DNA of 64,000 nt from an uncultured Actinomycetes bacterium (GTDB lineage Bacteria; Actinomycetota; UBA4738; HRBIN12), in NCBI GenBank assembly GCA_963850315.1, contig CAWKKN010000007.1, positions 71,222 to 135,221 on the forward strand. The letters are read 5' to 3'. Below, in pieces: positions 7,070 to 60,859 of the stretch. The translations under genes and the position numbers were made by a program. The notes beneath the pieces were generated by a model. That model saw only the letters and a program-made list of their open reading frames with translations, made no database searches and had not been told where the DNA came from. How positions within the stretch are numbered: position 1 is the first letter of the stretch; every line of letters starts with the position of its first letter.

Positions 7070-7573
7070 TCAAGCAGACTTTCCATTCCCTGCCTCCCGC
7101 ACCATCAACCAGGACTCGACACGGGCGCCCCCTCGGACGTCGGTGTCCAGCGCCCGAACGACCTTGCGTAGGCTGGCTCTCTCATACGCACGTTGAGCGC
7201 GCACGTTGTCGACGGCGGTGAGCAGCGCGACGCGCGTCGCGTCGTGCTGCTCGAACAGATATCGGCACAGCAGGTCGACCGCGCGGGAGCCGAAGCCACG
7301 CCCGAGCGCGTCGGGATCTCCGATGAAGATGTCGAGACCCCATGCACCGTCGTCGGGCGAGATCGACATCTCCCGAGCCGCCTCCGCGTAGGCCGACCAC
7401 GGGTAGAACTGCAGGTAACCGATCGGCCGAGCGTCGACCTCGATGAAAGCCGCGACGCTCGCGCTGCCGGGATCCGTGTCCGGTCCGTACTCGGTTCTGA
7501 CACGTTCCTCGGAAGGATCGGGTTCGTCGTCGGCGTCCCAGACGGCACGCACGTGCGGCTCGAGCCGCCACAC
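7070..7573 (-). CDS. Alternative gene model: stand-alone GNAT N-acetyltransferase (AAC(6')-like fold) from GTG 7573
   Basis: Main-frame GTG at 7573 gives [18 protein letters not shown]..., matching the AAC(6')-Ib N-terminal motif WLNRSHIVEWW. 167 aa is a typical GNAT size. This model requires the upstream phosphoesterase to terminate via a frameshift (see findings). Confidence 0.4.
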
Positions 7574-9912: not shown

Positions 9913-9938
9913 CGGCGTCTGCCCCGGGGCGCCGCGCG

Positions 9939-11174
9939 ATGGATACTTCCCGCGTGGACGAGGACGCGAGGCCGGCAGCGGTGGCGGCGATCCCGGCGCC
10001 GGATCTGGCCGGCGAGGACAACCGCTATCGGGCGCTCTGCCGGGTGGCCTACAACGTGGTGTGGGAGCCCCACCTCCTGCTGTTGGTGGTCTTCGCGTTG
10101 GTGGGGGAACCGTGGCTCGCCTTGCTCAATGCGTTCAGCGTCATCGTGCTCCTGGGCGCCCGGTCCCTGGATGCCCGCGGGAAGGAACGGGCCGCGTTCT
10201 GGATGGCGATCGGGGAGATCACGGTCCATGCCGTCGTGGCGACGGTGGTGTTGGGGATCGCGGCCGGTTCACAGTTCCAGCTGCTCTTCGTGACGCTGGT
10301 ATCGGTATACGTGCCGTTCCTGCCGCTGTGGGGCCGCATCGTCCTCAGCGTCGCCGCGGGAGCGCTCCTGCTCGCTCTCATCGTGGTGGTAGGGCTCGCG
10401 GGACCGAGGGACCCCGTCCCCGCCCATCTCACCTTGGCGTTCCTCCTGCTGAACGTCGGGATCTTGATCGGGGGGATGGCTGCGGTCCTGGTGCAGCTCA
10501 CCAGCGTGGTGCGCCGGGCGGAGGACGCGCTGGCCGACGCCTACCTGCAGTCCGAGTCGCTGTTGCTCAACGTCCTCCCCGCCTCCATCGCCGAGCGACT
10601 GAAGCGCCGGCCGGGGCTGGTCGCCGACCGGTATCCGGACGCAACGATCCTGTTCGCGGACATCGTCGACTTCACACCGATGAGCGCGCGCTTGACGCCG
10701 GACCGGCTGGTCATGCTCCTGGACGACGTCAATAGAGAGTTCGACGAGCTCATCGAAGCCTTCGGGCTGGAGAAGATCAAGACGATCGGCGACGCGTACA
10801 TGGTGGCGGGCGGCGTGCCGACCGCTCGGGACGATCACGCCGAGGCCGTCGCCGAGCTCGCCCTGGCGATGCAGCTGGCGATCGGGCATTTCCACGACGA
10901 CGAAGGGCGTCCGCTGAGGTTGCGCATCGGGATGGCCTCGGGACCGGTCGTCGCCGGCGTCATCGGGCATCGGAAGTTCTCCTACGACCTGTGGGGAGAC
11001 ACCGTGAACACCGCCGCCCGCATGGAGAGCCACGGCATCCCCGGTGCGATCCACGTGGCGCCCGAGACCTTCGAGCACCTCAAGGGGCACTATCCGTTCA
11101 CGCCGCGCGGGCCGGTGGAGATCAAAGGGAAGGGCCTGATGCAGACCTACCTGCTCGATGGCGGCCCGGGCTAG
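9939..11174 (+). CDS. Class III adenylate/guanylate cyclase with N-terminal 6-TM membrane domain
   Basis: N-terminal hydrophobic helices, then the cyclase core (ILFADIVDFTPMS...KIKTIGDAYMVAGG...GPVVAGVIGHRKFSYDLWGDTVNTAARMES). Confidence 0.85.
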   Translation: MDTSRVDEDARPAAVAAIPAPDLAGEDNRYRALCRVAYNVVWEPHLLLLVVFALVGEPWLALLNAFSVIVLLGARSLDARGKERAAFWMAIGEITVHAVVATVVLGIAAGSQFQLLFVTLVSVYVPFLPLWGRIVLSVAAGALLLALIVVVGLAGPRDPVPAHLTLAFLLLNVGILIGGMAAVLVQLTSVVRRAEDALADAYLQSESLLLNVLPASIAERLKRRPGLVADRYPDATILFADIVDFTPMSARLTPDRLVMLLDDVNREFDELIEAFGLEKIKTIGDAYMVAGGVPTARDDHAEAVAELALAMQLAIGHFHDDEGRPLRLRIGMASGPVVAGVIGHRKFSYDLWGDTVNTAARMESHGIPGAIHVAPETFEHLKGHYPFTPRGPVEIKGKGLMQTYLLDGGPG

Positions 11175-15149: not shown

Positions 15150-15210
15150 CCGCGGTGGCGGTCCGACACCTCAGGTAGGGACCCGTTGGGACCTGTGAGA
15201 GCATCGCCTC

Positions 15211-45124: not shown

Positions 45125-45159
45125 CGCGGCGGATTCTAGCAACAGCGGGACCGCGGGCG

Positions 45160-45231
45160 AGCCGGAGGTGGGATTTGAACCCACGACCTACCACTTACGA
45201 GGCGGTTGCTCTGCCCCTGAGCTACTCCGGC
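45160..45231 (-). tRNA. tRNA-Thr (anticodon CGU)
   Basis: Reverse complement GCCGGAGTAGCTCAGGGGCAGAGCAACCGCCTCGTAAGTGGTAGGTCGTGGGTTCAAATCCCACCTCCGGCT. Anticodon loop CUCGUAA. 7-bp acceptor stem. Confidence 0.85.
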
Positions 45232-45268: not shown

Positions 45269-47401
45269 ATGGACCGAGCCGCGAAGCCCGCCACGAGCAA
45301 CACGACCACCGATGCCGAGCCACCCGGTCCGGTCGAGCGCGTCATGGTGGGGACCGACCGCTCCCAGACCGCGGAGCGAGCCGTGGCCTGGGCGGCCTCG
45401 TTCGCGGAACGGTTCCAGGCCGACCTGCACATCGTCCAGGTCGTGATCCCCGAGCAACCCGGCACGACGCAATACGGGGCCGCGGAGGGCACACGCGCCG
45501 CGGGAGCGGCCGACGCCCTCGCCACCTACGCGCGCCAGGTCGCCGGCGACCGCGGCTTCGCGCACGTCGTGATCGACGACGATCCCGCCATGGCCATCGT
45601 GCACGCCGCCGAATCGAAGCAGGCCGATGTCCTCGTGGTGGGCAACGCCGGGATGGCCGGGCGCAAGGAGTTCCTCCTGGGGAACGTGCCGAACCGCATC
45701 AGCCACAACGCGCGCTGCACGGTCATCATCGTCAACACCGCGTTGGACGGGACGGTGACCCACAACGCCGTCCGCCCCACCTCGACGGCCATCCGCGGGA
45801 GCCTGGAGGACCAGGCACCGGTGGAGCCGCACCTCACCGCGCGCGGCGCGCACATCGCGGCGGTGTTCGCCAAGCACGGGATGAAGGAGCTGTTCGGGCG
45901 GCCCGACAAGGACGGCGCCGTGGGTCGCGAGCGCCAGGCGAAGCGGCTCCGCGCGGCGCTCGAGGAGCTCGGACCGACGTTCGCGAAGCTCGGTCAGGTC
46001 CTGTCGACCCGCCCCGACCTCCTGCCACCGGAGTTCATCGACGAGCTCGCGACGCTGCAGGACCACGTCACGCCGTTGTCGGAAGATCAGGTCGTCGAGG
46101 TGATGGAGCAGGAGCTCCGCGTCCCGTGGGAGGACGTGTTCGACTCGATCGAGGCGAGCCCGTTGGCGGCCGGCACGATCGCGGAGGTCCACCGCGCCAC
46201 GCTGTCGGGCGGGACCCGAGTCGTGGTGAAGGTTCAGCGACCCAGCGCGAGGGAGGAGATCGAGCAGGATCTCGCACTCCTGGAGCTGTTCGCGGAGAAG
46301 GTGGGCGACCGGCCCGGCCTGAACCAGGTCATCGACATGGGCGCCGTCTTCGAGCACCTCTCGTCGTCGCTGCATCGGGAGCTGGACTTCCGGCAGGAGG
46401 CCGCGAACATCGAGCGGATGCGCAACGTGATCAAGGGCTACGTGCGTCTGGATGTGCCCAGGGTTCACGCCGACCTGTCGACCTCCCGGTTCCTCGTGAT
46501 GCAAGAGATCCAGGGGATCCCCATCGCTCAGGCGCCGGAAGGCAAGGAGCGCAAGGAGGCGGCGCGTCAGCTGCTGGAGAGCTACTACCAGCAGATCCTC
46601 GTTGACGGGTTCTTCCACGCCGATCCGCATCCGGGGAACCTGATGTGGTGGAACGACACCATCTACTTCCTCGACTTCGGCATGGTGGGCGAGGTCGGGC
46701 CGGAGATGCGCGAGCAGCTGATGCTGATGCTGATGGCGTTCTGGCAGGAGGACGTCGCGTTCCTCACGGACATCACGCTGATGCTGTCCGGTGGGATCGA
46801 TCGAACGGACCTCGATGTCGATGCCTTCCAGGGGGAGGTGGGGCAGCTGATGGCGGAGTACCGCACGGCCAACCTCGCCGACATCCAGCTCGGCCCGATC
46901 CTGCAGCAGATGACCGAGATCTCCCTGCGCCACGGCGTGCCCCTGCCCGCCTCCCTGACGCTCACGGGCAAGGCCCTCGCACAGATGCAGCTCGCGACCG
47001 CCGCGCTCGACCCCGAGCTCGACCCGTTCGACGTGGCGGGCTCGTTCTTGATGCGGAGCCTCTTCAAGGAGATGGGGGGCAAGCTGGACCCGAAGGCCCT
47101 CTTCTACCAATCGCAGAAGTTCAAGGTGCGTGCGATGCGGGTCATCGAGGCGGTGGAGCGGCTCATCGGGGCACGACCCGGGCAGAAGCTGGAGGTGAAC
47201 TTCAAGGCTTCGACGCTGGAGGCGACGATCCGTCGGGCGGGTCGCCGGCTCGCACTCGCCCTCACGGCCGGCGCCGCCCTGCTCGCCACCGGGCTCACGG
47301 CGGTCTCGTCGAACGTGGCGCGGTGGGTACCGCTCGCCTTCGGCACCGTGGGAGCTCTCCTGCTGTTGGCGATGCTGGTGGACATCGTCCGCAAACGCTA
47401 G
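45269..47401 (+). CDS. UspA-domain / ABC1-UbiB-family atypical kinase fusion protein with C-terminal TM helices
   Basis: N-terminal universal stress domain (VMVGTDRSQTAERAV...VLVVGNAGMAG...TVIIV). An ABC1/AarF kinase core follows (ASPLAAGTIAEVHRATL...HADPHPGNLMW...DFGMVG). Two C-terminal TM helices. Start at 45269 or 45344. The track start 45233 overlaps the tRNA. Confidence 0.75.
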   Translation: MDRAAKPATSNTTTDAEPPGPVERVMVGTDRSQTAERAVAWAASFAERFQADLHIVQVVIPEQPGTTQYGAAEGTRAAGAADALATYARQVAGDRGFAHVVIDDDPAMAIVHAAESKQADVLVVGNAGMAGRKEFLLGNVPNRISHNARCTVIIVNTALDGTVTHNAVRPTSTAIRGSLEDQAPVEPHLTARGAHIAAVFAKHGMKELFGRPDKDGAVGRERQAKRLRAALEELGPTFAKLGQVLSTRPDLLPPEFIDELATLQDHVTPLSEDQVVEVMEQELRVPWEDVFDSIEASPLAAGTIAEVHRATLSGGTRVVVKVQRPSAREEIEQDLALLELFAEKVGDRPGLNQVIDMGAVFEHLSSSLHRELDFRQEAANIERMRNVIKGYVRLDVPRVHADLSTSRFLVMQEIQGIPIAQAPEGKERKEAARQLLESYYQQILVDGFFHADPHPGNLMWWNDTIYFLDFGMVGEVGPEMREQLMLMLMAFWQEDVAFLTDITLMLSGGIDRTDLDVDAFQGEVGQLMAEYRTANLADIQLGPILQQMTEISLRHGVPLPASLTLTGKALAQMQLATAALDPELDPFDVAGSFLMRSLFKEMGGKLDPKALFYQSQKFKVRAMRVIEAVERLIGARPGQKLEVNFKASTLEATIRRAGRRLALALTAGAALLATGLTAVSSNVARWVPLAFGTVGALLLLAMLVDIVRKR

Positions 47402-47407
47402 CGGAGG

Positions 47408-47608
47408 CTAGTCCGGATCCAGATCGAGCTCGCCTCCCTTGGACGTGAGCGTCGTGGCCTGCCGGGGTTCAGGCTTGCCTTGCTTGCGGATCGAGCGCAT
47501 GACGATCCGCTCCAGGATCAAGGCCATCACGGTCATCCCGACGCCGACCATGAACCGCTCGAGCTTGCGGAAGACGCTTGCCGGTGGCGGTGTGGAGCGA
47601 GACGGCAT
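47408..47608 (-). CDS. Hypothetical 66-aa protein abutting the stop of the upstream histidine kinase gene
   Basis: The ORF starts at 47608, the nucleotide after the HK1 stop (47609). Amphipathic/hydrophobic segment MVGVGMTVMALILERIVM. No known domain. Confidence 0.35.
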   Translation of the reverse strand: MPSRSTPPPASVFRKLERFMVGVGMTVMALILERIVMRSIRKQGKPEPRQATTLTSKGGELDLDPD

Positions 47609-49693
47609 CTACGGAGCCTCCGCCCGGGCGGGGATGCGGCCGGCGACGGTGGTCCCGACCCCGGGCATCGAGACGATCGAGAGCGTGCCGCCGATGGCCG
47701 CGAGCCGATCCGCCATCCCCTGCAGGCCGGTCCCCGACGTCGGCATCGAGGCGTCGAACCCACAGCCGTCGTCGTGGACCTCGAACGCGAGCATGCCGTC
47801 ATCTTGCCCGATTTGGACGTCGGCGCGCGAGGCCGCCGCGTACTTCGCGACGTTCTGGAGCGCCTCCAGCGCACAGAAGTAGGCGGCCGCCTCGGCTTCC
47901 TGCGGGTAGCGGCCGACGCCCGGACCGGCGACGACGGAGACCGGGAGCGGGAACTTCCGGGCCTGGGCCTCGAGGGCGCTCACGAGCCCCTTGTCGGCCA
48001 GCAGCGGGGGGTAGATCCCGCGCGCGAGATCCCGGAGGTTCTCCAGGGCTTCCTGGGTCTCCGACTCGATCTGGCCGAGCATCTCCGTTGCCTTGCCTGG
48101 GTCGCGCTCGGAGAGCGTCCGCGCGAGCCGGGCCTTCACGGTCAGGGCCACCAGCTGCTGCTGCGCGCCGTCGTGGATGTTGCGCTCGAGGCGCCGGCGT
48201 GCCTCGTCCTGCGCCGCCACGATCCGTCGCTGGGCCGCCGTGAGCTCTTCAAGCCGGCCCTTCAGCTGCTCGGTGAGCCGGACGTTGCGCAGCACCAGAC
48301 CCACCTGACCCGCCAGGTCGGTGACGAGCTTGTCGTCGGCGGGCGTCACGGGATCGACCGAGGGCTTCCGCACGGCCAGCGCGCCCAGGAGCTCGCCGCC
48401 CGACTCCACCGGCCACACGCGGTCGGCTCCCTCGATCGGCGGCACGACCCCGTTCGGCAAGGTCACCGAGGGCTGGGAGCCGAGTTCGGGCGGCCATACG
48501 GCGACGTCACGCAGCTCGCGGTCCACCGCCAGCCAGACATCTCCGCGTTCGGCTCCGATCCCCTCCCCGAGCACGCGCGCCATCCGCGGCAAGAGGTCCT
48601 CGTCCGCGTAGGCGCTTCCGACCCGCTCAGAGAACTGCGACAGGATCTCGTAGGGGGTCGCACGCCGGCCGTACACCAGATGGTTGGCGACGCGGGACAG
48701 CCGCGCGCGCATCGGCTGGAAGGTCACGGCGACGGTCACCGCCGCCACCATCGTGAGGAAGGAGCTCCCGTGACCGATCCAGGCGCCCAGCCCGACCACC
48801 AGCGCGAGGTACACGGCGGTCGCGAACACCGCGAGCGCGACGTAGACAACCGTCTTGCGAACGACGAGGTCGAGATCGTACAGGTGGAAGCGCAGGACCC
48901 CGACCGCGACCGCCACCGGGATCGCCATGAATCCGGCCGCCGTCACGACCGCGTTCGCGACGTCGCCGTGGATCAGCGCGTTGCCGGGGACGACACACAC
49001 GAAGGCCACGACCACACCGAACAGCACCCACTTGATCTGCTGGCGCTCGATCCCGTGCGCGTGACGGAAGCGCACGAAGACGGATGCGACCGAGGCGAGG
49101 ATCATGAGAGGGATCGCGATCCCGAGGGCCCCGGGGATCCGGTGCACGATCCGCGCCACCGCGCTGACGTAGAAGGGGTTCGAGATCGTGAGGTTCGAGT
49201 CGGTGCCCGACAGGACGCGCGCGCTCAAGACGTAGCCGAACAGCGTGAGCACGATCGCGGCGACGAAGGCCCACAGGAGCGGGCGCCAGCGCCTGCTGGG
49301 CAGGTGCCCGTCCGGGAACAGGAGCGGCAGGAGGAAGACCGCGGGGATCGTCCCGAGGATCCAGCCGATCCCGTTGAACAGGCCAAGGAGCTGGACGCCG
49401 AGGCCGTCGGCCCCGCGCCGCACGAGCCACGTCGTGAGCTCCGCCGAGGCGAACGATGCGGCCGCCATGAACGACGCGTAGAGGAGCAGGAAGCCGATCA
49501 CGTTCCCGCGGTCGCGGCTCGCGATCAGGGCGCCGACGAGGCCGAAGGTGGTGAACGCGACCACATAGGGCCACTGTGCCCCCGACGACTCGTGGTTCGC
49601 GTAGACGAGCGCCATCCCGACGATCGCGACCCCGATGAAGCCGGCGAGCACGACCCAGGGCCATCGGGCGTTGGCTCGCTCAACCGACGACAC
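47609..49693 (-). CDS. Sensor histidine kinase (multi-TM sensor, GAF-like, HisKA_3, HATPase_c); paralogue of 52247..54391
   Basis: About 10 N-terminal TM helices with a PDGHLPSRRWRPLLW motif. H-box ERNIHDGAQQQLVAL (HisKA_3, the NarL-partner type) and an ATPase domain. Overlaps the upstream REC-cyclase gene by 14 nt. Confidence 0.85.
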   Translation of the reverse strand: MSSVERANARWPWVVLAGFIGVAIVGMALVYANHESSGAQWPYVVAFTTFGLVGALIASRDRGNVIGFLLLYASFMAAASFASAELTTWLVRRGADGLGVQLLGLFNGIGWILGTIPAVFLLPLLFPDGHLPSRRWRPLLWAFVAAIVLTLFGYVLSARVLSGTDSNLTISNPFYVSAVARIVHRIPGALGIAIPLMILASVASVFVRFRHAHGIERQQIKWVLFGVVVAFVCVVPGNALIHGDVANAVVTAAGFMAIPVAVAVGVLRFHLYDLDLVVRKTVVYVALAVFATAVYLALVVGLGAWIGHGSSFLTMVAAVTVAVTFQPMRARLSRVANHLVYGRRATPYEILSQFSERVGSAYADEDLLPRMARVLGEGIGAERGDVWLAVDRELRDVAVWPPELGSQPSVTLPNGVVPPIEGADRVWPVESGGELLGALAVRKPSVDPVTPADDKLVTDLAGQVGLVLRNVRLTEQLKGRLEELTAAQRRIVAAQDEARRRLERNIHDGAQQQLVALTVKARLARTLSERDPGKATEMLGQIESETQEALENLRDLARGIYPPLLADKGLVSALEAQARKFPLPVSVVAGPGVGRYPQEAEAAAYFCALEALQNVAKYAAASRADVQIGQDDGMLAFEVHDDGCGFDASMPTSGTGLQGMADRLAAIGGTLSIVSMPGVGTTVAGRIPARAEAP

Positions 49694-50957
49694 GGAACAC
49701 CTCCACGGGTTCGGCTCGGCCCTTCACGGTCCGGCTGCCGATCGGCTCGCAAACGATGTCGGGCGCCGCGGCGACGGTGGAAACGGACGCCACGATCTCA
49801 CCGGACTCGGCCTCGGACTGGAGGCGCTGCGCCACGTTCACCGCATCCCCGATCACCGTGTACTCCAGCCGCCCACCTCCGCCGATCGCACCGGCGATCA
49901 CGGTCCCGGTGTTGAGCCCGATCCCCACCCCAAGGGTCGGCACGGCCTCGGTGCCCCAACCCGACTCGTTCAGCTCGGCCTGCCGTGCCTGCATCGCGAT
50001 CGCGCAGCGCAGCGCACGTGGCGCGTGGTCGGGGAGCGGATCGGGCGCGCCGAAGATGGCCATCACCGCGTCGCCCTGGAACTTGTCGATCGTGCCCCCG
50101 TGCGCCGCGATGACCTCCGCCATCGCCTGGAGGTGCCGCCCGACGACGTCGGCGATCTCGCGGGCCTCGAGCCGCTCCGCGATCGCCGAGAAGCCGCGGA
50201 TATCGCTGAACAACACCGTGACCTCCAGCTCCACCTGCTGCGCACCGTGGCCGTCGGCGAGCCGGGCTGCCACCTGCTCCGGAACGAACGAGCGCAGCGC
50301 GTCGGCGGTCGAGGACCGCTCCACGACCGCCGCGTGCAGACGCTTCATCTCATCGACGGCCTGGCTCCCGCCCGACTCGGCATCGACCGCCATCCGTCGG
50401 AACAGCTCGGTGACGCGGCGATCCACGGCCTCTTGGGTCGTGCCGAGCTCGTTCGCCATCTGCTCGTACCCCAGACCCTTGGACATCATGTCGAGGACGA
50501 CCCGGTCGTCTTCGCCCGTGTCGGCTCGACCCGACAGCCGTTCGGCGATCAACGGATCCACCGCGCTACCGCCCGCGTGCACCTCGCGGATCGCGCGCAC
50601 CAACTCGTCTCCCTGCGCGATCCGGTCCTTCAAGAGGTAGGCGAGACCGCTGTGGCCTCCCCCGAGGAGGGCGAGGGCGTAGGCCTCGTCGTCGTGGGCC
50701 GACAGCACGACGACCCCGGTGTCGGGATGAGTCGAACGGATCGAGTGCGCGCAGTCGATCCCCTCGAGCTGGAACGAAGGCGGCATCTTGATGTCGGTGA
50801 CGACGACGTCCGGCACGTGCTCGGCGGCGGTCGCGAGGAGGGTCGGGGCGTCCTCGGCCACGCCCACGACCTCGATGTCGTCGTAGGAGTCCAGCAAGGC
50901 CCGAACGCCCTCTCGCACCAGCACGTTGTCCTCGCCGAGGACCACTGTGATCGTCAT
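49680..50957 (-). CDS. Response regulator receiver - LuxR-like HTH - class III adenylate cyclase fusion protein
   Basis: ATG 50957. REC (TVVLGEDNVLVREG...VVVTDIKMPP). A degenerate LuxR-type HTH (VLDMMSKGLGYEQMANELGTTQEAVDRRVTELFRRM). The cyclase core follows (VTVLFSDIRGFSAIAE...KFQGDAVMAIFGAP...GLNTGTVIAGAIG...VIGDAVNVAQRLQS). Confidence 0.8.
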   Translation of the reverse strand: MTITVVLGEDNVLVREGVRALLDSYDDIEVVGVAEDAPTLLATAAEHVPDVVVTDIKMPPSFQLEGIDCAHSIRSTHPDTGVVVLSAHDDEAYALALLGGGHSGLAYLLKDRIAQGDELVRAIREVHAGGSAVDPLIAERLSGRADTGEDDRVVLDMMSKGLGYEQMANELGTTQEAVDRRVTELFRRMAVDAESGGSQAVDEMKRLHAAVVERSSTADALRSFVPEQVAARLADGHGAQQVELEVTVLFSDIRGFSAIAERLEAREIADVVGRHLQAMAEVIAAHGGTIDKFQGDAVMAIFGAPDPLPDHAPRALRCAIAMQARQAELNESGWGTEAVPTLGVGIGLNTGTVIAGAIGGGGRLEYTVIGDAVNVAQRLQSEAESGEIVASVSTVAAAPDIVCEPIGSRTVKGRAEPVEVFRVVG

Positions 50958-50989
50958 GCCGCGGGACCCTCCACGTGTACCATCCGCCC

Positions 50990-51658
50990 ATGCTGCGGGT
51001 CGTATTCGCCGAGGATAACTACCTCGTCCGCGAAGGGACGACCGCATTGCTGGCGGAGTCCGACGAGATCGAGATCGTCGGAACCGCCGCCACGAAGGAC
51101 GAGCTGCTGGCGGCCGTGGAGGCCGAGTCGCCCGACGCGGTGCTGACCGACATCCGGATGCCGCCCACGGGCACCGACGAGGGCATCGCCGCGGCGAAGC
51201 AGATCCGCGACGCGCACCCGCGGATCGGCGTCGTGGTCCTCTCGCAGTTCGCGGACGAGGCCTACGCGTACGACCTCCTGAAGGACGGCGCCGCCGGCCT
51301 CGGCTACCTCTTGAAGGAACGCGTCGCCGACGTCGAGGAGCTGGTGCGCGCCCTGGAGGAGGTCAGCCGCGGCGGGAGCGTGCTCGACCCGAAGGTGGTC
51401 GAGTCGCTGGTGGCGGCGAAGGACAGGATGGCGCATTCGCCGCTCGCCACGCTCACGGACCGCGAACGCGAGGTGCTGTCGCACATGGCCCAGGGTCAGA
51501 ACAACGCGGCGATCGCGAAGTCGTTGTTCCTCACGGAGCGCGCCGTCGAGAAGCACATCAACTCCCTGTTCCACAAGCTCGACCTCACAGAGGAGCCCGA
51601 CGTCCACCGTCGGGTGATGGCCGTCCTCGCGTTCCTGCACGAGTCCGATCAGGCCTAG
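50990..51658 (+). CDS. NarL/LuxR-family response regulator (REC + HTH_LuxR)
   Basis: MLRVVFAEDNYLVREG...AVLTDIRMPP. C-terminal LTDREREVLSHMAQGQNNAAIAKSLFLTERAVEKHINSLFHKL. Divergent from the REC-cyclase gene, with only about 32 bp between the two starts. Confidence 0.85.
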   Translation: MLRVVFAEDNYLVREGTTALLAESDEIEIVGTAATKDELLAAVEAESPDAVLTDIRMPPTGTDEGIAAAKQIRDAHPRIGVVVLSQFADEAYAYDLLKDGAAGLGYLLKERVADVEELVRALEEVSRGGSVLDPKVVESLVAAKDRMAHSPLATLTDREREVLSHMAQGQNNAAIAKSLFLTERAVEKHINSLFHKLDLTEEPDVHRRVMAVLAFLHESDQA

Positions 51659-51660
51659 GC

Positions 51661-52068
51661 TCACTGGGCCTTCCTCGTGTCGACGACGTAGACGCTGCAC
51701 GGGGAGTGACGCAGGACCAGGTTCGCGACGCTGTCACGTACGTGCCACCACGAACCTTGGGCGCCGCGGTTGCCCACGACGATCGTGTCGACCTGCTCCT
51801 CGGCCGCGACATCGCAGATACGTGCGGCGGGGTCGCCGTCGGCAACACGGGTGTGCGTCGGCACGGCGGGGAATCGCCCTCGCAGGCCCTCGAGATAGGC
51901 CTCGGGGCTCGCCGCCCTCGACGGATCGACGGCGGCACGCAGATCCCCTTCGGACCTGACGAACAGGACGAGCAGTTCCGCCCCGCGCGCACGCGCGAGC
52001 TCGGCGGCGTCGGCGACCGCGAGGTCCGCCGATGCGGTGGTATCGGTTCCGACCAGGATCTTGTTCAT
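51661..52068 (-). CDS. Universal stress protein (UspA family)
   Basis: MNKILVGTDTTASADLAV...DTIVVGNRGAQG...VYVV. 135 aa. Confidence 0.8.
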   Translation of the reverse strand: MNKILVGTDTTASADLAVADAAELARARGAELLVLFVRSEGDLRAAVDPSRAASPEAYLEGLRGRFPAVPTHTRVADGDPAARICDVAAEEQVDTIVVGNRGAQGSWWHVRDSVANLVLRHSPCSVYVVDTRKAQ

Positions 52069-52246
52069 CGTTACCCTCCTTGAGGGGTTGCACCGCCACC
52101 GTAGGTCGGACGCCGCCGCGAATCGAGCCGGCCCTCACCACGATCCCCGGGGGATGCCACCACCACCGCGAAGGAGGGGTTCCGGCCCGCGAACGTGCAG
52201 GTCGGCCCCCTTCCTGCGGGCCCTGTCGCCGGGTGAGAATCCCGCT

Positions 52247-54391
52247 ATGGACGAGACCGTCGAGATCGCGCTCTGGCCGCGGACCCTCTCGTACGTCCTC
52301 GCGGCCTTCATCGCGGCGCTCTGGGTGGTGGGAGCCGTGCTGCTCGCCGCCGACGGCACGGCGATCTACGGCAACCAGTGGTTCCTGTGGGGCCTGTTCA
52401 CTATCACCGGCGTCGCGTACGTGGTGGCGGGGATCGCGATCATCCGGCGCCAGCCGTCGAACCCCGTGGGCTGGCTCATGCTGTTCATCGCTGGAGCGCT
52501 CGCCGTCGGCACGCCCGGGGCCGCGTACGGGATCTACGCGATCCGCGTGTCGTCCGGCGGGTTGCCGGCGCCCGCGGCGGTCCTGGCCCTCGCCGAGCCC
52601 ACCCCGATCCTGTCCCTCCTGGGGATCATCCTGGTGCTGCAGCTGTTCCCCGACGGCCGGCCCGTTTCGCGGCGGTGGCGGCCGCTGCTGTGGCTCACGG
52701 TGGCCGTCGCGATCGAGGGCACGATCGGCCAGATCCTGACGCCGCACAGGATCGTCGACATATGGTCAGACGACCTCAGTCACGCCCACGTCTCGGTCGC
52801 GGACCCGTTCGGCGTCCACGCCCTGCGCGGCGCCGGACATACCGGAGCCACGGTGGGTGGGCTGCTCCTGGCGTCCGTCGCGGTGCTCGCCATCGCATCG
52901 CTCTTCGTCCGCCGCCGGCGCGCCGGCGCCACGCAGCGGGCCCAGCTCCGATGGCTCGCGCTCGTCGTAGGGCTCGCGGCCGCATGGATCGTCGTGATGC
53001 TCCCTCTCGCGATCGTCAGCGGGGGGAACGGGTTTCTCGGCGGCCTGTTCTGGATCGTCATCACACCACTCGTCGCCCTTGGCATCCCGACCGCCGTCGG
53101 GATCGCGATCGTGCGGTATCGCCTGTTCGACATCGACGTCGTGATCTCGAAGACGATCGTGTACGGGACGCTGGCTGCGTTCATCACCCTGGTCTACATC
53201 GGGATTGTCGTGGGGGTCGGGCAGATCGCCGGGTCCGTGGGCGCGCCCGCGCTGTCCGCGGTCGCAGCAGCGATCGTCGCGATCGCGTTCCAGCCCGTGC
53301 GCCGCCGGGTGCAGCGGTTCGCGAACCGGTTGGTCTACGGGGACCGTGCGAGCCCTTACGAGGTGCTCTCGGAGTTCTCCGAGCGTGTCGCCGGCGCCTA
53401 CGCCATCGACGACCTTTCGAAGCGGATCGCCAGGATCCTCGGCGAGAGCACCTCGGCGAGCGCTGCGGCGGTCATGCTGAGGATCGGCTCCGAGCTCCGG
53501 CCCGACGCCTGGTGGCCGGAAGACGAACCGCCACCCGAGCCGATCACCGTTGTGGACGCGGAGGCTCGGGGAACCGACGACCAGCATCTGCTCGCCCTCG
53601 TGCGGCACCAGGGCGAGCCGCTGGGAGCGCTCGTCGTCACGAAGCCCGCGAGCGACCCGATCACTCCGACCGAACGCAAGCTGGCGAACGACCTGGCGGC
53701 TCAGGCGGGACTCGTACTCAGCAACGTCCGCCTCACCGAGGAGCTCCGAGCGAATCTCGAAGACCTGCATGCCTCCCGGCAGCGCTTGGTCGCCGCGCAG
53801 GACGAAGAGCGCCGGCGGCTGGAGCGGAACCTCCACGACGGGGCCCAGCAGGAGCTCGTGGCCCTCGCGGTCAAGCTCCGCCTCGCCCAACAGCTCGCGG
53901 ACCGAGACGGCGCGAAGACGAAGGAGATGCTCGGGCAGCTCCAAGACGACACAGCCTCCGCCCTCGAGAACCTCCGCGACCTCGCCCGCGGGATCTATCC
54001 GCCGCTCCTGGCCGACCAAGGGCTTGCGGCCGCACTCGAGGCGCAGGCGCGCAAGGCGCCGGTGCCGACCGCGGTGCACGCGCGTAACGTCGACCGCTAC
54101 CCGCAAGACGTCGAGGCCGCCACCTACTTCTGCTGCCTCGAGGCGCTGCAGAACGTTGCGAAGTACGCCCACGCCACGCACGTCGACATCGACCTTGGGA
54201 CCGACGACGGCGCATTGACGTTCCGGGTCACCGACGACGGTGAGGGGTTCGACCCGGCGTCGACGGCGCGCGGATCGGGCCTGCAGAACATGACGGACCG
54301 ACTGTCGTCGCTGGACGGCGACCTGCACATCGAGAGCATGCCCGGCCGAGGCACGACGATCGAGGGCCGTTTGCCGATGGGGGCACGCTGA
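52247..54391 (+). CDS. Sensor histidine kinase (multi-TM sensor, GAF-like, HisKA_3, HATPase_c); paralogue of 47609..49693
   Basis: ATG 52247. Same architecture and motifs as HK1 (FPDGRPVSRRWRPLLW; ERNLHDGAQQELVAL; C-terminal GSGLQNMTDRL). Confidence 0.85.
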   Translation: MDETVEIALWPRTLSYVLAAFIAALWVVGAVLLAADGTAIYGNQWFLWGLFTITGVAYVVAGIAIIRRQPSNPVGWLMLFIAGALAVGTPGAAYGIYAIRVSSGGLPAPAAVLALAEPTPILSLLGIILVLQLFPDGRPVSRRWRPLLWLTVAVAIEGTIGQILTPHRIVDIWSDDLSHAHVSVADPFGVHALRGAGHTGATVGGLLLASVAVLAIASLFVRRRRAGATQRAQLRWLALVVGLAAAWIVVMLPLAIVSGGNGFLGGLFWIVITPLVALGIPTAVGIAIVRYRLFDIDVVISKTIVYGTLAAFITLVYIGIVVGVGQIAGSVGAPALSAVAAAIVAIAFQPVRRRVQRFANRLVYGDRASPYEVLSEFSERVAGAYAIDDLSKRIARILGESTSASAAAVMLRIGSELRPDAWWPEDEPPPEPITVVDAEARGTDDQHLLALVRHQGEPLGALVVTKPASDPITPTERKLANDLAAQAGLVLSNVRLTEELRANLEDLHASRQRLVAAQDEERRRLERNLHDGAQQELVALAVKLRLAQQLADRDGAKTKEMLGQLQDDTASALENLRDLARGIYPPLLADQGLAAALEAQARKAPVPTAVHARNVDRYPQDVEAATYFCCLEALQNVAKYAHATHVDIDLGTDDGALTFRVTDDGEGFDPASTARGSGLQNMTDRLSSLDGDLHIESMPGRGTTIEGRLPMGAR

Positions 54392-54545
54392 CGCCGAGAC
54401 GCCCCGGCGTCCAGGGCCGAAGGTCCCTGGTGGGTGCTCCGCGTCTGGTGCTAGCGTCGCTTGCCATCAAGCAGGAGGATCCGCAACGCTGAGGAACCGA
54501 AGGCACGCCCGAGCGGCTCGCCTCACCGCAACCGGGATCCTTGCC

Positions 54546-57245
54546 GTGAGCTTGATCGCGGCATCCCTACCCCCCGGGATCTCCTCGGCGACCTCGGCGT
54601 CGAGCCAAGCCTCCCGCACACCCACCCCGACGCCGTCGACCCTGGCGGCGCGGGCAGCACTCGCGGCGGCGATCGGCTCCGGCGCGATCCTGGAGACCGA
54701 GCGACCGCTCGGCGCGCTTCGCTGGGTCGCGAACCTCGACGGCACGCTCACCGGCCCGAGCGCATCGTCGCCACCGGACATCGCGCTGGGGTACGTCGTG
54801 GCGCACCTCGAAGCCTTCGGCCTGACGGCGCACGACGTCGCGCTCCTGAGCTTCCGCGACGACTACGTCGACATCCTAGGGACGCACCACCTCTCCTGGG
54901 TGGAGCGGGTGAATGGCGTCGCGTTCTTCGGCGCCGGGCTGAAGGCGGCGGTGGCCGCGGATGGCTCCCTCATCTCGCTGGCCGGGCCCGTCTATCACAT
55001 CGTCCGGCTCACCGGTCCCGCCTCCATCCATCTGTCTGCCGACCAAGCGGTCGCCGCGGCGCGAACCGCGCTCGAGGCTCCAGCGCGACGCGGACCCTCG
55101 ACCGCGATGCCGCCAGACCGGGCCACGCTCGTCCGCTTCGCGGCGCCCGGGACAGCGGGATTCGCGTGGGACACCACGACCGCCATCTCACCGGAGCGGA
55201 TCGTCCGCTCCGTGGTGGACGCCGCGACAGGGCGCGTGCTCTGGCGAGAGAACCTCGTGCGCAACGATGTGAGCGGCTCGGGACTCGCCTGGCCCGAGGC
55301 GCCGGGTCCGTTCCCCAACGGGGGCGGCGTCCAGGCGCCCGTGACGTTTCCAGTGGCGGGGCCCTCCGCGCTCTCCGGAAACAACGCCCACGTCTACACG
55401 GCGGTCAGCGGCTCCGATGAGATCGTCCCCGCCGACGAGATCCCCGCCACCGATGCGTCCGCGCTCTCGTGGGGTGCGAGCGCCACGTTCGATATCACGA
55501 CGGTCGGGCAGAACTGCAGTGCCACCTATCCATGCACATGGAACTACGCCGTCCCCTACAGCTGGCAGACGAACCGCCGGCAGGAGGCCGTCCAGGCCTA
55601 CTACCTGCTGAACGTCTACCACGATCACCTTGCGGCGCCGCCGATCGGCTTCACCGAGGCGGCGGGGAACTTCCAGGTTACCAACGGCACCGGCCTCGGA
55701 CACGGCGGCGACCCGGTGGAAACGACGACCCTCGTGGGCGCGAACCTCGGTCACGACGGGCGGCCCAGGATCCTCAACAACGCCTCGATGTACGCACCGC
55801 CCGACGGCATGCCCGGCCGCATGGCGCTCTACCTGTTCCGCCGCGACCGCGCCCACCCCGCGAGCCCGACGGCTGACGCGGCGGACGATGCCACCGTCGT
55901 GTTCCACGAGTACACGCACGGGATGTCGAGCCGCCTCGTGACGATGCCCGACGGAAGCGAGGCCCTCTACGGAGGGCAGTCGGGGGCCATGAGCGAGGGC
56001 TGGAGCGATTGGTACGCGCTCGACGACCTGGTCGCGCAGGGCTACCAACCGGATACACCGGCTGTCGACCTTCCCGTGGGCACGTGGATCAGCGGCGGCC
56101 TCGGGGTGCGCCCGCAGTTCGCCGACTGCCTCCCGGCAAGCCGCGTCCGCGGATGCGCGGCGGCGGGCACGGCGGGGCCAGGTGGTTTCACCTACGGCGA
56201 CTACGGACGGATCGCCGGGGCGCCGGAGGCCCACGCCGACGGCGAGATCTGGCTGCAGACCCTCTGGCAGCTGCGCGCCGCGCTGGGCTCCGCCGTGACG
56301 GAGGCGATCGTCACGCGCGCGATGGAGCTCTCGCCTCAGGCACCCACGTTCCTCGAGGAACGTGACGCCATCCTCATCGCCGACACCACCGTGTACGGCG
56401 GCGCGCATCGCGACGCGATCTGGCACGTGTTCGCTCGCAGGGGGATGGGCTTCTTCGCTTCGTCCCGCGACACGTTCGACGAGCACCCGGTCGAGAGCTT
56501 CGCGCTGCCCGCGACATGCCCCGGCGCCGGCTGCGGGAGCGTGTTCGGGCAGGTCGTCGACCCCACGTCCGATAAGCCCGTCGTCGGCGCCCTGGTGCAT
56601 CTCGCGGCGGACGAGCTTGGTGTGCCCGTCGATCTGAGCGCCACCAGCGATGCCAAGGGCCGTTTCCGGATCTCCGATGTGCCCGACGGTTCCTACCGCA
56701 ACGTGACGGTTTCGAGGAACGGGTATCGGACCGTGTGGTTCGGACCGGTGAACGTGGACGGGGACACCCACCTGCAGTTGGCGATCCGCAGAGACTGGGT
56801 CACGGTCTCGGGGGGCGCCAAGATCCAGAGCGTCACCGGACCCGACCGCACGACCGCACTCGGGGAATGTGGGCCGCAGGGCGTCATCGACGGCTCCCTG
56901 TCCACGAGCTGGCTCACCTCGATCGCGCGTCCAGCCGTGCTCACGATCCAGCTGCCTGCCTCGGTGAACATCATCGACTTCAAGGTGGATCCGGCTGCTC
57001 GCTGCGCCGGCACCAACTCCGATACCCGCTCCTTCCGGATCCTGACGCGAACGCAACGAGGCCGCTGGACGGTCGCCTTTTCGACGACAACGGGGCTACC
57101 GAGGGGGGGACTCACCACCCTGCGACCGACGACCGGCTGGCGCGACGTGCGATCCGTTCGGCTCGTGCTGCTGTCGGCCGCGCGATCGACCCGCCAGGTG
57201 GAGTTCAGGGAGCTGATCGTGCACGGCGTCGTGCCGGAGCCGTGA
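54546..57245 (+). CDS. Secreted M36 (fungalysin)-like zinc metallopeptidase with C-terminal CarboxypepD_reg and F5/8-type-C (discoidin) domains
   Basis: HEYTHG zinc-binding motif in a fungalysin context. A CarboxypepD_reg-like segment (GQVVDPTSDKPVVGALVHL...GRFRISDVPDGSY) and a discoidin-like tail. The GTG 54546 start gives a weak signal peptide. A better signal sequence exists in frame upstream but without a standard start codon. Confidence 0.7.
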   Translation: MSLIAASLPPGISSATSASSQASRTPTPTPSTLAARAALAAAIGSGAILETERPLGALRWVANLDGTLTGPSASSPPDIALGYVVAHLEAFGLTAHDVALLSFRDDYVDILGTHHLSWVERVNGVAFFGAGLKAAVAADGSLISLAGPVYHIVRLTGPASIHLSADQAVAAARTALEAPARRGPSTAMPPDRATLVRFAAPGTAGFAWDTTTAISPERIVRSVVDAATGRVLWRENLVRNDVSGSGLAWPEAPGPFPNGGGVQAPVTFPVAGPSALSGNNAHVYTAVSGSDEIVPADEIPATDASALSWGASATFDITTVGQNCSATYPCTWNYAVPYSWQTNRRQEAVQAYYLLNVYHDHLAAPPIGFTEAAGNFQVTNGTGLGHGGDPVETTTLVGANLGHDGRPRILNNASMYAPPDGMPGRMALYLFRRDRAHPASPTADAADDATVVFHEYTHGMSSRLVTMPDGSEALYGGQSGAMSEGWSDWYALDDLVAQGYQPDTPAVDLPVGTWISGGLGVRPQFADCLPASRVRGCAAAGTAGPGGFTYGDYGRIAGAPEAHADGEIWLQTLWQLRAALGSAVTEAIVTRAMELSPQAPTFLEERDAILIADTTVYGGAHRDAIWHVFARRGMGFFASSRDTFDEHPVESFALPATCPGAGCGSVFGQVVDPTSDKPVVGALVHLAADELGVPVDLSATSDAKGRFRISDVPDGSYRNVTVSRNGYRTVWFGPVNVDGDTHLQLAIRRDWVTVSGGAKIQSVTGPDRTTALGECGPQGVIDGSLSTSWLTSIARPAVLTIQLPASVNIIDFKVDPAARCAGTNSDTRSFRILTRTQRGRWTVAFSTTTGLPRGGLTTLRPTTGWRDVRSVRLVLLSAARSTRQVEFRELIVHGVVPEP

Positions 57246-58846: not shown

Positions 58847-60859
58847 CTACCGTCCGTCACCGTCACTGTCGGGGTGGGCGACGACGCGGTCGATCGCCGC
58901 CTTGACGCCGTCGAATACCTCTGCGGGCCCCGCCTCCGCCTGGACCACCACGAAGCGCTCCGGATGCTCCTCGGCGATCTTCAGGTAAGCGTCGGCGACC
59001 TTCGCATGGAAGTCCTGGCCCTCCAGCTCCATGCGATCGGGCGCTTCGGTGGACCGCAGCAACCCGCGTTCGGGCTCAACGTGCAACAGGATCACGAGGT
59101 CGGGGAACAGCCCCTGGGTCGCCCACACGTTCAGCGTGAGCACGTCCTGTTCGCCGAGACCTCGCGCCCAGCCCTGATATGCGAGCGACGAATCGACATA
59201 GCGGTCGCAGATCACGACCTTGCCCTCCGCCAGGGCCGGGCGGATCACGGACGTCACCGTCTGCGCTCGGGAGGCGGCGAACAGCAGCGCCTCGCTCCGC
59301 GCATCCACCTTCCCGGTGTTGGGGTCGAGCAGCACCTGCCGGATCTTCTCGCCCAGCTCGGTCCCGCCGGGCTCGCGCGTCACGAGGACGTCGTGTCCGG
59401 CGGCCCGCAGATACTCCTCGGCCATCCGGATCTGCGTGCCCTTGCCCGCGCCCTCCACGCCCTCGAACGCGATGAAGATCCCGCTCGTGGGGGGGCGCTT
59501 CAGCTTCGGCACGAGCATGAGGGGTCGCGGACTCGACAGCCGATGCCGCTGCAACAGTCGTCGGGTGTTGAGCCCACCTGCCAGTGCAAGCAGGCCGGCC
59601 GTCCACATCGCGAGCCGCGTGCCCGAGAAGTCGAAGTGCTGCCCCCCGATGTGGAACCCGTAGTTGCCATAGACGGTGGACAGGATAGGGAACAGCGTGA
59701 GGGACAGGAAGAGCCCCAATCGGGAGAGCACCGTCAGCGACGCGAACGTCCGTCCGCGGTACTCGTCCTCGACGTTCTCCTGCAGGAGCGTGTATCCGCT
59801 CACCCACGCCAGCCCGCAGAAGGCGCCCAGCCAGACCGCCACCACCGAGGCCAACGAAAGGTTGGGCATCGCCGCCAACACGAAGAGCGCGCCCGCAGCC
59901 GCGACCATCGCCCAGACGAACGTCACGCTACGGTCGACGAACTTCGTGACCTGGTTGGTCCCAGCCATGCCGATGGCCATGCCCACCCCGAACGCCACCA
60001 CCACGACCCCCCAGCCAGCCGGCCCGGCCCCGAGCGTGAACGTGACGAAGCTGGAGCCCAGCGCCAGGACGGCGCCTACCGCGGCGAACGCCATCACGAT
60101 GCCGGCGGTCATCGCCGCGGCGATCGAGTCCTCGCGCAGGAACCGGACGCCGTCCACCATGTCGTGCCACACGCGGGAAAGGTCGAACCCGCCGAGCGCC
60201 CGCCCCGATGGCGGCGGGATCGGGACGCCGCTCACCATGAACGCCGAGAACGCGAACGTGCCCGCGTCCAGCAGGAGGGGCAACGTCTGCGGATGCGTCC
60301 CGAGCCCCACCGCCTTGCTGAACTCGGCGAGCACGGCGAAGATGATGCCCCCCAGAGGGAGCGTCGCGTAGGTGCTCACCAGGCCGATCGAGTTCGCGTT
60401 CGCGAGCTGGCGCCGGGGAACGATGTTGGGAAGCGATGCGTCGCGCGCAGGGATCCACAGGAGCGACAGGCACTCGATCGCGAACGACAGCAGGAAGATC
60501 GCCCACAGCTCGTGCAGGAACGCCATCGACGCGTACATCGCGCCCCGGCCGATGTCGGCGATGATCATGATCTGCTTGCGATTGACCCGATCGACGATCG
60601 TGCCCGCAACCGGCCCGAACAGGATCGCCGGCAACGTGCGAGCGATCATCACCCCGCTGACCGCGAGGCCCGCGGTCCCGATGGAGCCGGACAGGGTCGT
60701 GACGAGCGAGGTCACGGCGACGAACCCGACCCAGTCCCCCAGCGACGACACGGACATCGCCGCCAGCAGGCGGGAGAAGGCCGGAAGGGTCAGGAGATCC
60801 CTGAGGGTGGCCGACTTCGTGCCGCGCAGTGCCGCGACCTCGTCGGCGAAGGTCGACAC
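58847..60859 (-). CDS. tmk: MFS-type 12-TM membrane domain fused to thymidylate kinase
   Basis: The N-terminal 450 aa are MFS-like (12 TM helices). The C-terminal 210 aa are Tmk (IFIAFEGVEGAGKGTQ P-loop, DRY motif DRYVDSS, LID region). It is one continuous ORF. Large membrane-fused Tmk proteins occur in other actinobacteria. Confidence 0.75.
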   Translation of the reverse strand: MSTFADEVAALRGTKSATLRDLLTLPAFSRLLAAMSVSSLGDWVGFVAVTSLVTTLSGSIGTAGLAVSGVMIARTLPAILFGPVAGTIVDRVNRKQIMIIADIGRGAMYASMAFLHELWAIFLLSFAIECLSLLWIPARDASLPNIVPRRQLANANSIGLVSTYATLPLGGIIFAVLAEFSKAVGLGTHPQTLPLLLDAGTFAFSAFMVSGVPIPPPSGRALGGFDLSRVWHDMVDGVRFLREDSIAAAMTAGIVMAFAAVGAVLALGSSFVTFTLGAGPAGWGVVVVAFGVGMAIGMAGTNQVTKFVDRSVTFVWAMVAAAGALFVLAAMPNLSLASVVAVWLGAFCGLAWVSGYTLLQENVEDEYRGRTFASLTVLSRLGLFLSLTLFPILSTVYGNYGFHIGGQHFDFSGTRLAMWTAGLLALAGGLNTRRLLQRHRLSSPRPLMLVPKLKRPPTSGIFIAFEGVEGAGKGTQIRMAEEYLRAAGHDVLVTREPGGTELGEKIRQVLLDPNTGKVDARSEALLFAASRAQTVTSVIRPALAEGKVVICDRYVDSSLAYQGWARGLGEQDVLTLNVWATQGLFPDLVILLHVEPERGLLRSTEAPDRMELEGQDFHAKVADAYLKIAEEHPERFVVVQAEAGPAEVFDGVKAAIDRVVAHPDSDGDGR

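Follow-up and report, generated by a model that had tools for sequence, protein, structure and literature searches.

The 64,000-nt window analyzed here, from an uncultured Actinomycetes bacterium (GenBank assembly GCA_963850315.1, contig CAWKKN010000007.1, positions 71,222 to 135,221 of the forward strand), carries a two-component signaling cluster at window positions 47408 to 54391. At its center lie two divergent regulator genes, one encoding a NarL-type transcription factor and the other a 425-residue fusion of a response regulator with an adenylate cyclase. Sequence alignment showed that the fusion derives from duplication of an entire NarL-type regulator, to whose C-terminus a cyclase was added, and that it is not a receiver joined to a cyclase by a linker. 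We consider it probable, though not secure, that the locus is a two-component module built like usp-devR-devS, in which the regulator has been duplicated and cyclic AMP (cAMP) serves as a second output. A sequence-only reading of the same DNA had named six genes here and proposed a branched signaling system. All six were found where it placed them, and the paralogy of the two regulators and the likeness to usp-devR-devS are additions to that reading.

The origin of the fusion was evident from its N-terminal half. Its first 200 residues aligned with the NarL-type neighbor at 45% identity (E 7e-48), with the alignment running through the helix-turn-helix (HTH), and in a family-level alignment of the two regulators the similarity extended to the helix after the HTH. 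The NCBIfam MctR and NarL profiles were also covered by the fusion to about position 190-200. By these comparisons the N-terminal 200 residues of the fusion and the NarL-type regulator are paralogues. The neighbor itself (50990..51658, plus strand) showed the receiver and GerE matches expected of the NarL/FixJ family, both above threshold (Response_reg 59.3 bits, GerE 52.2 bits). Ordinary receiver-cyclase regulators recovered in the same search (P0222 and P0228) were 337-381 residues long; their linker is short and helical, and they lack an HTH-like insert. The sequence-only reading had described the fusion as a receiver, a degenerate LuxR-type HTH and a class III cyclase core, and this architecture was borne out by the Pfam domains and by the alignment to the neighbor.

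The receiver domain occupied residues 1-127 of the fusion (50577..50957, minus strand), with a Pfam Response_reg match at residues 6-110 (E 8e-16, 58.6 bits). The phospho-acceptor D55 was accompanied by E9, D10, S86, Y107 and K110, and all six residues were invariant in the 34 orthologues used for the residue comparisons in this work. With its PF00072 match and these phospho-acceptor residues, the domain is an intact response regulator receiver.

The HTH region (residues 148-196; 50370..50516, minus strand) aligned with the HTH of the neighbor and with that of DevR, and appeared to be vestigial. It gave no GerE (PF00196) match at E<=0.01, and a fusion orthologue scored 14.6 bits against a GerE cut-off of 23.5. 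In the alignment, DevR K179, K182 and N183, the base-contact residues of the DevR-DNA structure, corresponded to E176, D179 and R180 of the fusion. The family-level alignment also showed a deletion of nine residues in the linker between receiver and HTH. We judge from the sequence that the HTH has decayed: it descends from the NarL/FixJ family and no longer fits the family definition. Decay did not mean loss of the fold or of constraint. AlphaFold (AF2) predicted the three HTH helices with a confidence score (pLDDT) of about 87-91, and T173, T174, E176, V178, D179, V182, T183 and F186 in the putative recognition helix were invariant. Because so many residues of this helix are invariant, the region presumably still has some role, for which an intramolecular or dimer contact would be the simplest guess.

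The predicted fold and the strong purifying selection on these eight residues could also be read in another way. The fusion might be bifunctional, its HTH still binding DNA or pairing with the NarL-type sister, since paralogous regulators could heterodimerize, so that cAMP synthesis would be coupled to promoter occupancy. The missing GerE match, the acidic Glu and Asp at the DevR base-contact positions and the nine-residue deletion in the linker all speak against this reading, and an intramolecular regulatory contact would explain the conserved surface equally well. We therefore think a DNA-binding fusion quite unlikely.

The C-terminal part of the fusion (residues 245-416; 49710..50225, minus strand) matched PF00211 Guanylate_cyc with E 4e-24 (85.6 bits against a cut-off of 21.9). 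The metal-binding D252 and D296, the substrate-binding T367 and the transition-state residues N374 and R378 were invariant, and the substrate-binding K292 was conserved in at least 90% of the 34 orthologues. The best solved relatives were Cya2 (2w01), Pseudomonas aeruginosa CyaB (3r5g) and Spirulina CyaC (1wc0), with E values of 1e-35 to 1e-23 and a root-mean-square deviation of about 1.9 Å. The spacing of the catalytic residues (44, +4) was that of CyaC. The Lys-Thr pair, the best solved relatives and the catalytic spacing together place the domain in subclass IIIb.

All six catalytic positions were thus occupied and conserved, so the domain is predicted to be a complete and active cyclase. 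The metal-binding Asp pair and the transition-state residues had been singled out in the sequence-only reading as the point on which the enzyme might prove a pseudo-cyclase, and their presence rules that out. The identity of the product was a separate question, as the closest solved core, Cya2, is a guanylate cyclase. K292 aligned with a Lys in the chain of 6fht labeled adenylate cyclase, while Cya2 has a Glu at this position. A Lys here speaks for ATP as the substrate, and the product would then be cAMP. Taking these residues together, a pseudo-enzyme or a producer of cGMP seems very improbable. A second class III cyclase gene lies elsewhere in the window (9345-11174, plus strand; 609 residues), with a Guanylate_cyc match at residues 427-605 (E 1.6e-59) and an N-terminal region without a Pfam match, so that the organism has several sources of cAMP.

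The genes of the locus were delimited with Pfam and NCBIfam domain calls, and the junctions between them were read directly off the sequence. The fusion gene was listed as an open reading frame (ORF) from 49680 to 51047. We set its true start at the ATG at 50957, giving a gene at 49680..50957 (minus strand), because the receiver domain begins there and a Shine-Dalgarno-like GGAGGG (50967..50972, minus strand) lies 9-15 nt upstream; GGAGG/GAAGG-type runs were found at the same place in orthologues. The kinase gene HK1 follows (47609..49693, minus strand). Its GTG start is inside the last codons of the fusion gene, with a 14-nt overlap and a GGAGG 7 nt upstream of the GTG, and the TAG stop of HK1 is followed immediately by the ATG of a small gene, orf66 (47408..47608, minus strand). 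The fusion gene, HK1 and orf66 thus form one operon with the fusion gene first, and the translational coupling of HK1 to the fusion that had been read from the sequence earlier was upheld by the overlap and the GGAGG.

On the other side of the divergent starts, the NarL-type gene converges on usp, which encodes a universal stress protein of 135 residues (51661..52068, minus strand; PF00582 E 4.4e-24, 86.1 bits against a cut-off of 24). Only 2 nt separate the two stop codons. The second kinase gene, HK2 (52247..54391, plus strand), diverges from usp, with 178 bp between the starts. The earlier description of a usp gene wedged between regulator and HK2 was therefore right as to position, to which we add that usp is on the minus strand, facing the NarL-type gene tail to tail and HK2 head to head. 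Beyond orf66, and convergent with it, lies a gene fusing a Usp domain to ABC1, a UbiB-type atypical kinase (45269..47401, plus strand; Usp E 4.9e-25, ABC1 E 1.3e-62). The start codon of this Usp-ABC1 gene is uncertain, its ORF being open from 45233. The G+C content of the surrounding stretch was 70% without a compositional break, and G+C at third codon positions (GC3) was 0.83-0.95 in all six genes of the cluster, which is the coding signature of this genome.

Orf66 gave no Pfam or NCBIfam match. The protein has a single hydrophobic segment (residues 19-37) and is conserved in relatives with the consensus RR.ERW.VG..MAV.AFVLEK.VMRSVRK ... TT.TSKGG.EVDL. A chance ORF was ruled out by its GC3 of 0.85 and by the conservation of this protein motif in 60 loci.

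The two kinases shared the same general build. Each had about 9-10 membrane helices with short loops, followed by a GAF-like region, a HisKA_3 domain and a HATPase_c domain; in HK2 the GAF match was weak and just above threshold. The phospho-accepting histidines, H507 of HK1 and H530 of HK2, both lay within the motif ...RN[IL]HDGAQQ..., which contains the HDxxxQ signature. PF07730 HisKA_3 scored 52.4 bits in HK1 (E 8e-14) and 49.2 bits in HK2, and HATPase_c 34.6 and 43.2 bits, respectively. With these matches and the conserved His and DxxxQ, both proteins belong to the HisKA_3 sensor kinases. The relatives of the N-terminal membrane region of HK1 were HisKA_3 kinases from metagenome-assembled genomes (MAGs) of Actinomycetota, a few of which carried PF16927. 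HK2 had been described as a near-duplicate of HK1, which its 45% identity over the full length does not bear out; the two are paralogues, and comparison of the dimerization and histidine phosphotransfer (DHp) region supported this relationship. One gene call on an ENA contig of 1.04 Mb (P0279; 456 residues) combined a cyclase Pfam domain with a stretch that matched the N-terminal membrane region of HK1 at 99% identity. Probably this call is an artefact, arising from a frameshift or from assembly where the two genes overlap by 14 nt.

The sequences of kinases and receivers also bear on which kinase would serve which regulator. Kinases from opposite sides of the locus were 74% identical in DHp helix 1 and 80% in helix 2, compared with 54% for the ATPase domain and 40% for the hairpin loop, so that the regulator-docking helices were the best-conserved part of the kinases. 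Only two positions were side-specific, both 19-20 residues before the phospho-histidine, and the DHp helices held no side-specific residue after it. In the receivers, 10 of the 14 positions of helix alpha1 were identical between the two regulators. For these reasons we favor a kinase pool that would be shared by both regulators.

The gene content of related loci could be set beside these residues. No kinase lay between the fusion gene and orf66 in 9 of 60 related loci, counted as those in which the two genes were less than 900 nt apart, and about 10 of 61 loci had no kinase within 6 kb on the other side. From 0 to 3 kinase genes occurred after the fusion gene and 0 to 3 beyond usp, up to about five per related genome, while the regulator pair was constant.

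Two insulated two-component systems lying side by side would be the alternative, with HK1 serving the cyclase regulator only, HK2 serving the NarL-type regulator only, and no branching. The translational coupling of the fusion gene to HK1 fits such an arrangement. At 65% identity in the catalytic core, the fusion-side kinases also formed clusters distinct from those of the opposite side, a pattern that insulated pairs explain equally well, and alpha1 of the two receivers showed the fixed differences V12/Y, V18/T and R19/A. These observations count against a shared pool. The lack of side-specific DHp residues after the histidine, the loci without a kinase on one side and the variable number of kinases per side are hard to reconcile with strict insulation, which we regard as possible but on the whole doubtful. 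A branched read-out into transcription and cAMP, as the sequence-only reading had proposed, is plausible and about twice as likely as strict insulation; that part of the proposal is supported by the docking helices and the kinase-less loci.

Comparison of the 80 best related loci showed that the regulator pair is a stable arrangement. The order usp, NarL-type gene and divergent fusion gene was kept in 80 of 80 loci. Identity to the window proteins was 75-91% for the NarL-type regulator, 72-83% for the fusion, about 50-80% for Usp and 35-62% for the kinases. The invariant core of the locus is thus the regulator pair with usp, and the kinases are the variable part. Orf66 was found downstream in 60 of the 80 loci (34-57% identical), and a Usp-domain match, corresponding to Usp-ABC1 on the strand opposite to orf66, followed it in most related loci. 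In several genomes (L002 at 7310-8114 on the plus strand, and also L010, L018, L020 and L023) a multi-transmembrane protein of about 260 residues without a kinase domain was encoded between the fusion gene and orf66, where it either replaces a kinase or is additional to one.

More than 7,000 relatives, partial matches included, came out of a protein search with the fusion at E<=1e-10. The best 120 were 71-100% identical and nearly all 421-435 residues long, and the named ones were annotated only as adenylate cyclase or response regulator of 'Actinomycetota bacterium' MAGs. Among contigs representing one genome per species, at least 210 stretches encoded a relative of the fusion; the best 80 of these all came from uncultured Actinomycetota or Actinomycetes, one of them labeled Solirubrobacterales. 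In a library of 1.8 billion members clustered at 50% identity, about four representatives covered the full length (P0121, P0126, P0127 and P0128), and an intact GerE domain was absent from all four. The full-length architecture was seen only in uncultured Actinomycetota. From these searches the family appears phylogenetically narrow and abundant in soil metagenomes, with an HTH decay old enough to be common to all members. Receiver-cyclase fusions had been called rare in actinobacteria, which holds for the cultured genera and fails for this lineage. One of the representatives, P0127 (metagenome, 561 residues), was a full-length relative at 44% identity with an extra receiver C-terminal to the cyclase. 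The literature searches made found no experimental study of the fusion family.

The two regulator genes are separated by exactly 32 bp between the ATGs at 50957 and 50990, in agreement with the earlier estimate of about 32 bp. This spacer ranged from 32 to 56 bp across loci and contained a single conserved element. A -10 hexamer of the form TANNNT, TACCAT in the window (50978..50983, plus strand), was located 6 nt before the ATG of the NarL-type gene and was present in all 56 anchored orthologous regions as TACCAT (41), TACGAT (13) or TAGCAT (2). The element cannot be coding, because it includes a TAG in two loci. An N-terminal extension of the NarL-type protein from a GTG at 50975 was rejected on similar grounds: two orthologues have a TAG in frame within the conserved GTGTACCAT block, and the GTG itself is not conserved. 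The NarL-type gene has no Shine-Dalgarno sequence. Mycobacterial -10 elements have the same spacing to the transcription start, and leaderless transcripts account for roughly a quarter of the mRNAs in mycobacteria (PMC6448022). The mRNA of the NarL-type gene is thus most likely leaderless, as judged from these elements.

The sequence-only reading had supposed that the two divergent genes share a compact control region. This idea was not sustained, as the spacer keeps only the -10 element of the NarL-type gene and shows no conserved operator-like repeat; the palindromic operator lies upstream of the usp genes, as described below. Since the fusion gene has a Shine-Dalgarno sequence, its own promoter must fall within the NarL-type coding sequence. 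A candidate -10 hexamer, TATCCT, was found there in codons 8-10 (51012..51017, minus strand). The third base of the Asp9 codon gives the key A of this hexamer. This codon was GAT in 41 of 56 orthologues, compared with a GAT share of 14% among the remaining Asp codons of these genes; at the corresponding codon of the fusion gene, 2 of 80 had GAT (Fisher p 1e-19). A or T in third position was, however, somewhat more frequent across all of the first 20 codons in the leaderless gene. A buried promoter of the fusion operon, overlapping the leaderless promoter of the NarL-type gene, would thus be a lead and not a finding.

The conserved operator was found by aligning 69 usp upstream regions. The palindrome GGGTGC-N2-GCACCC occurred 90-110 nt upstream of usp in 43 of the 69 loci at no more than one mismatch, and about 95 nt upstream in 58 of 69 at no more than two. 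In other loci it also preceded the Usp-ABC1 gene, at a distance of 80-120 nt. A census over 926 kb counted 73 near-perfect palindromes, almost all upstream of usp or Usp-ABC1, and there was no enrichment near the divergent regulator starts. In the window, the distal operator box lies at 52152..52165 (minus strand) as TGGTGGTGGCATCC, with three mismatches to the family palindrome. It is followed by a proximal block at 52124..52142 (minus strand), whose consensus is CGTGGTGGCGGCCGGGTCG, with three differences in the window copy, and by a putative -10 hexamer TACGGT at 52098..52103 (minus strand) within a conserved CCTACNGT block. The consensus of the tandem boxes is GGGTGCTGGCACCC. Two copies were carried by 16 regions, and in 12 of these the GTGSTGGC core recurred 22 nt beyond the distal box. 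Across the usp upstream regions, the proximal block was followed on its 3' side by a TACNGT hexamer and then a strong Shine-Dalgarno sequence, AAGGAGG in the window. The boxes were centered near -67 and -45 from the inferred transcription start.

Most likely it is the NarL-type regulator that would bind these boxes and activate the two usp-type genes. Other interpretations of the usp box were tried and rejected. The CTGGCAC in it suggested a sigma-54 promoter, but no -12 element was found at the right spacing, and actinobacteria are not known to have sigma-54. A CRP-type site was excluded because the GTG and CAC are 4 nt apart and not 8 nt. A scan of 47200-54700 for consensus promoters and terminators found none. 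The window Usp also received no support as a specific relative of the cAMP-binding Usp Rv1636, since the solved structures of Rv1636 were absent among its matches at E<=0.001.

Several features elsewhere in the window were noted. An Rfam scan of the window returned two tRNAs and nothing else. One of them, tRNA-Thr(CGT) (45159-45231, minus strand), abuts the start region of Usp-ABC1, where related genomes have GGGTGC-N2-GCACCC. The idea that the cluster is a genomic island beside this tRNA gene was ruled out by the uniform composition and by the synteny of the cluster in 80 species. The order of the core genes in the window (radA, clpC, lysS, coaX, folP, folE, hpt ... holB, tmk, topA) is actinobacterial. 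Between holB and topA, one 670-residue frame (58847-60859, minus strand) joins an MFS transporter (residues 32-386) to a thymidylate kinase (residues 465-648). This may be a genuine fusion, or else two genes taken for a single one. The neighborhood is rich in signaling genes, with an ECF-type sigma factor carrying DUF6596 at 2362-3780. An unrelated soluble GAF-PAS-HisKA-HATPase kinase is encoded at 15199-17415 (plus strand) and is followed by a cytochrome P450 gene.

The following mechanism would account for the organization of the locus. The paralogous membrane kinases, HK1 and HK2 in the window, would autophosphorylate in response to a membrane or intracellular cue acting on their membrane or GAF part, and would hand the phosphate to both sister regulators. 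The NarL/DevR-type factor, probably made from a leaderless mRNA, would bind the tandem GGGTGC-N2-GCACCC boxes and switch on the two usp-type genes. The other regulator would have kept the whole NarL-type body, let its HTH decay and acquired a class IIIb cyclase at the C-terminus. Phosphorylation of D55 would be expected to dimerize or re-register the fusion. Two cyclase domains would then build, or readjust, the active sites that they share, and the same stimulus would thereby also change the cAMP pool.

A number of observations weigh against this proposal. In the AF2 monomer model, the linker between the HTH remnant and the cyclase, through which the signal would pass, had a pLDDT below 50 and is thus modeled with low confidence. 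The usp box of the window is degenerate relative to the family consensus, and the tRNA gene occupies the upstream region of its Usp-ABC1. VraR and DevR were the best solved relatives of the NarL-type regulator (E about 1e-23), which was no closer to DevR than to VraR. Because it is equally close to VraR, the likeness to DevR is architectural and not a matter of orthology. Finally, the sequence does not fix the sign of the regulation. Phosphorylation might turn the cyclase off or only tune it, and the unphosphorylated fusion would then be the cAMP source. Phosphorylation of NarL-family regulators normally promotes dimerization, however, and a homodimeric class III cyclase requires it. The precedents differ, as one receiver of Dictyostelium ACR slightly stimulates its cyclase and the other inhibits it, whereas in the closest characterized case, CyaC, phosphorylation of the receiver activates a class IIIb cyclase (PMC3009899). 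An inhibitory or only tuning effect thus seems unlikely, and we retain activation of the cyclase by the receiver as the working model.

More speculatively, the locus may be the core of a stress or dormancy circuit in a large uncultured soil lineage of Actinomycetota. Membrane kinases in variable number would supply one phosphate pool, split between a DevR-like factor that drives the usp genes and a sister regulator turned into a cAMP synthase. The regulator genes would also exclude each other's transcription through overlapping back-to-back promoters, namely the leaderless NarL-type start and the candidate -10 of the cyclase operon in NarL codons 8-10. We think this fuller picture unlikely to hold as a whole; if it did, the cell would choose between transcription and a second messenger as its output. 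Class III cyclases under receiver control have been described before, as have cross-wired systems of the NarL type, so that the locus embodies no new principle. The route is new: after duplication of a complete NarL-type regulator, one copy parted with its DNA-reading residues and acquired a cyclase, and this cyclase-bearing regulator has remained beside its transcription-factor sister in all related genomes examined. The two proteins form a natural matched pair for studying how one phosphorylation signal divides between gene expression and cAMP, and the same pair suits the question of how an HTH is re-used as a transducer. Being abundant in soil metagenomes, the family represents a conserved and unstudied circuit of uncultured Actinomycetota that can be tested with recombinant proteins alone. 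It also ties cAMP signaling directly to a usp/DevR-like stress module. In mycobacteria such a link is known only indirectly, through the cAMP-responsive factor Cmr (PMC4705688).

Several characterized systems resemble the locus in part. CyaC of Spirulina and Anabaena and the simple receiver-cyclase regulators have the same class IIIb core, Lys-Thr pair and N-terminal receiver control. However, CyaC unites kinase and GAF domains with the cyclase in a single large hybrid protein, whereas the kinases here are separate proteins, and a complete NarL-type body including the HTH remnant precedes the cyclase in the fusion. In the mycobacterial proteins Rv0386, Rv1358 and Rv2488c, an ATPase/TPR region lies between a cyclase and an HTH. 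They likewise combine a class III cyclase with a LuxR-type HTH in one polypeptide, but in the reverse order, with the cyclase N-terminal, the HTH intact and no receiver; this architecture was found only in Mycobacterium in the census that described it (PMC3466318). The receiver-GGDEF proteins PleD and WspR also have a nucleotide cyclase as output, which is active only in dimeric form and is controlled through dimerization upon phosphorylation (PMC8041772), although the reaction and the product (c-di-GMP) differ and there is no HTH remnant.

A parallel for the wiring is the NarX/NarQ-NarL/NarP system of Escherichia coli, in which two paralogous HisKA_3 kinases and two paralogous NarL-family regulators offer potential cross-phosphorylation. 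The NCBIfam NarX, NarQ, NarL and NarP models all matched the window proteins below their cut-offs. Both Nar regulators are transcription factors, whereas one output here is enzymatic; the sensor domains are unrelated, and the number of kinases in the present system varies between genomes.

In overall layout, the locus can be compared with Rv3134c(usp)-devR-devS and dosT of Mycobacterium tuberculosis. There, too, a usp gene lies beside a NarL-family regulator gene and there are two paralogous GAF-containing HisKA_3 kinases. The usp gene Rv3134c heads the devRS operon, and usp genes are among the DevR targets (PMC3177182). DevR promoters carry a 6-2-6 palindrome with outer GGG/CCC, that is, G4G5G6 in each half, and a well-conserved box has a weaker in-phase neighbor about two helical turns away, as in the pair at -63.5 and -42.5, with the box closer to the gene lying near -35 (PMC3177182). 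The putative tandem operator boxes described here match this geometry across orthologues, although the copy in the window is degenerate. The two systems also differ in clear ways. The features of a DevR/DosR-type regulon, namely DevR orthology and haem-GAF kinases, were absent from the locus: the DevR kinases are soluble haem GAF-GAF proteins, while those described here are polytopic membrane proteins with one weak GAF. The box reads GGGTGC in place of GGGACT. Finally, the regulator gene of the present system is monocistronic and most likely leaderless, and it is accompanied by a second regulator that bears a cyclase.

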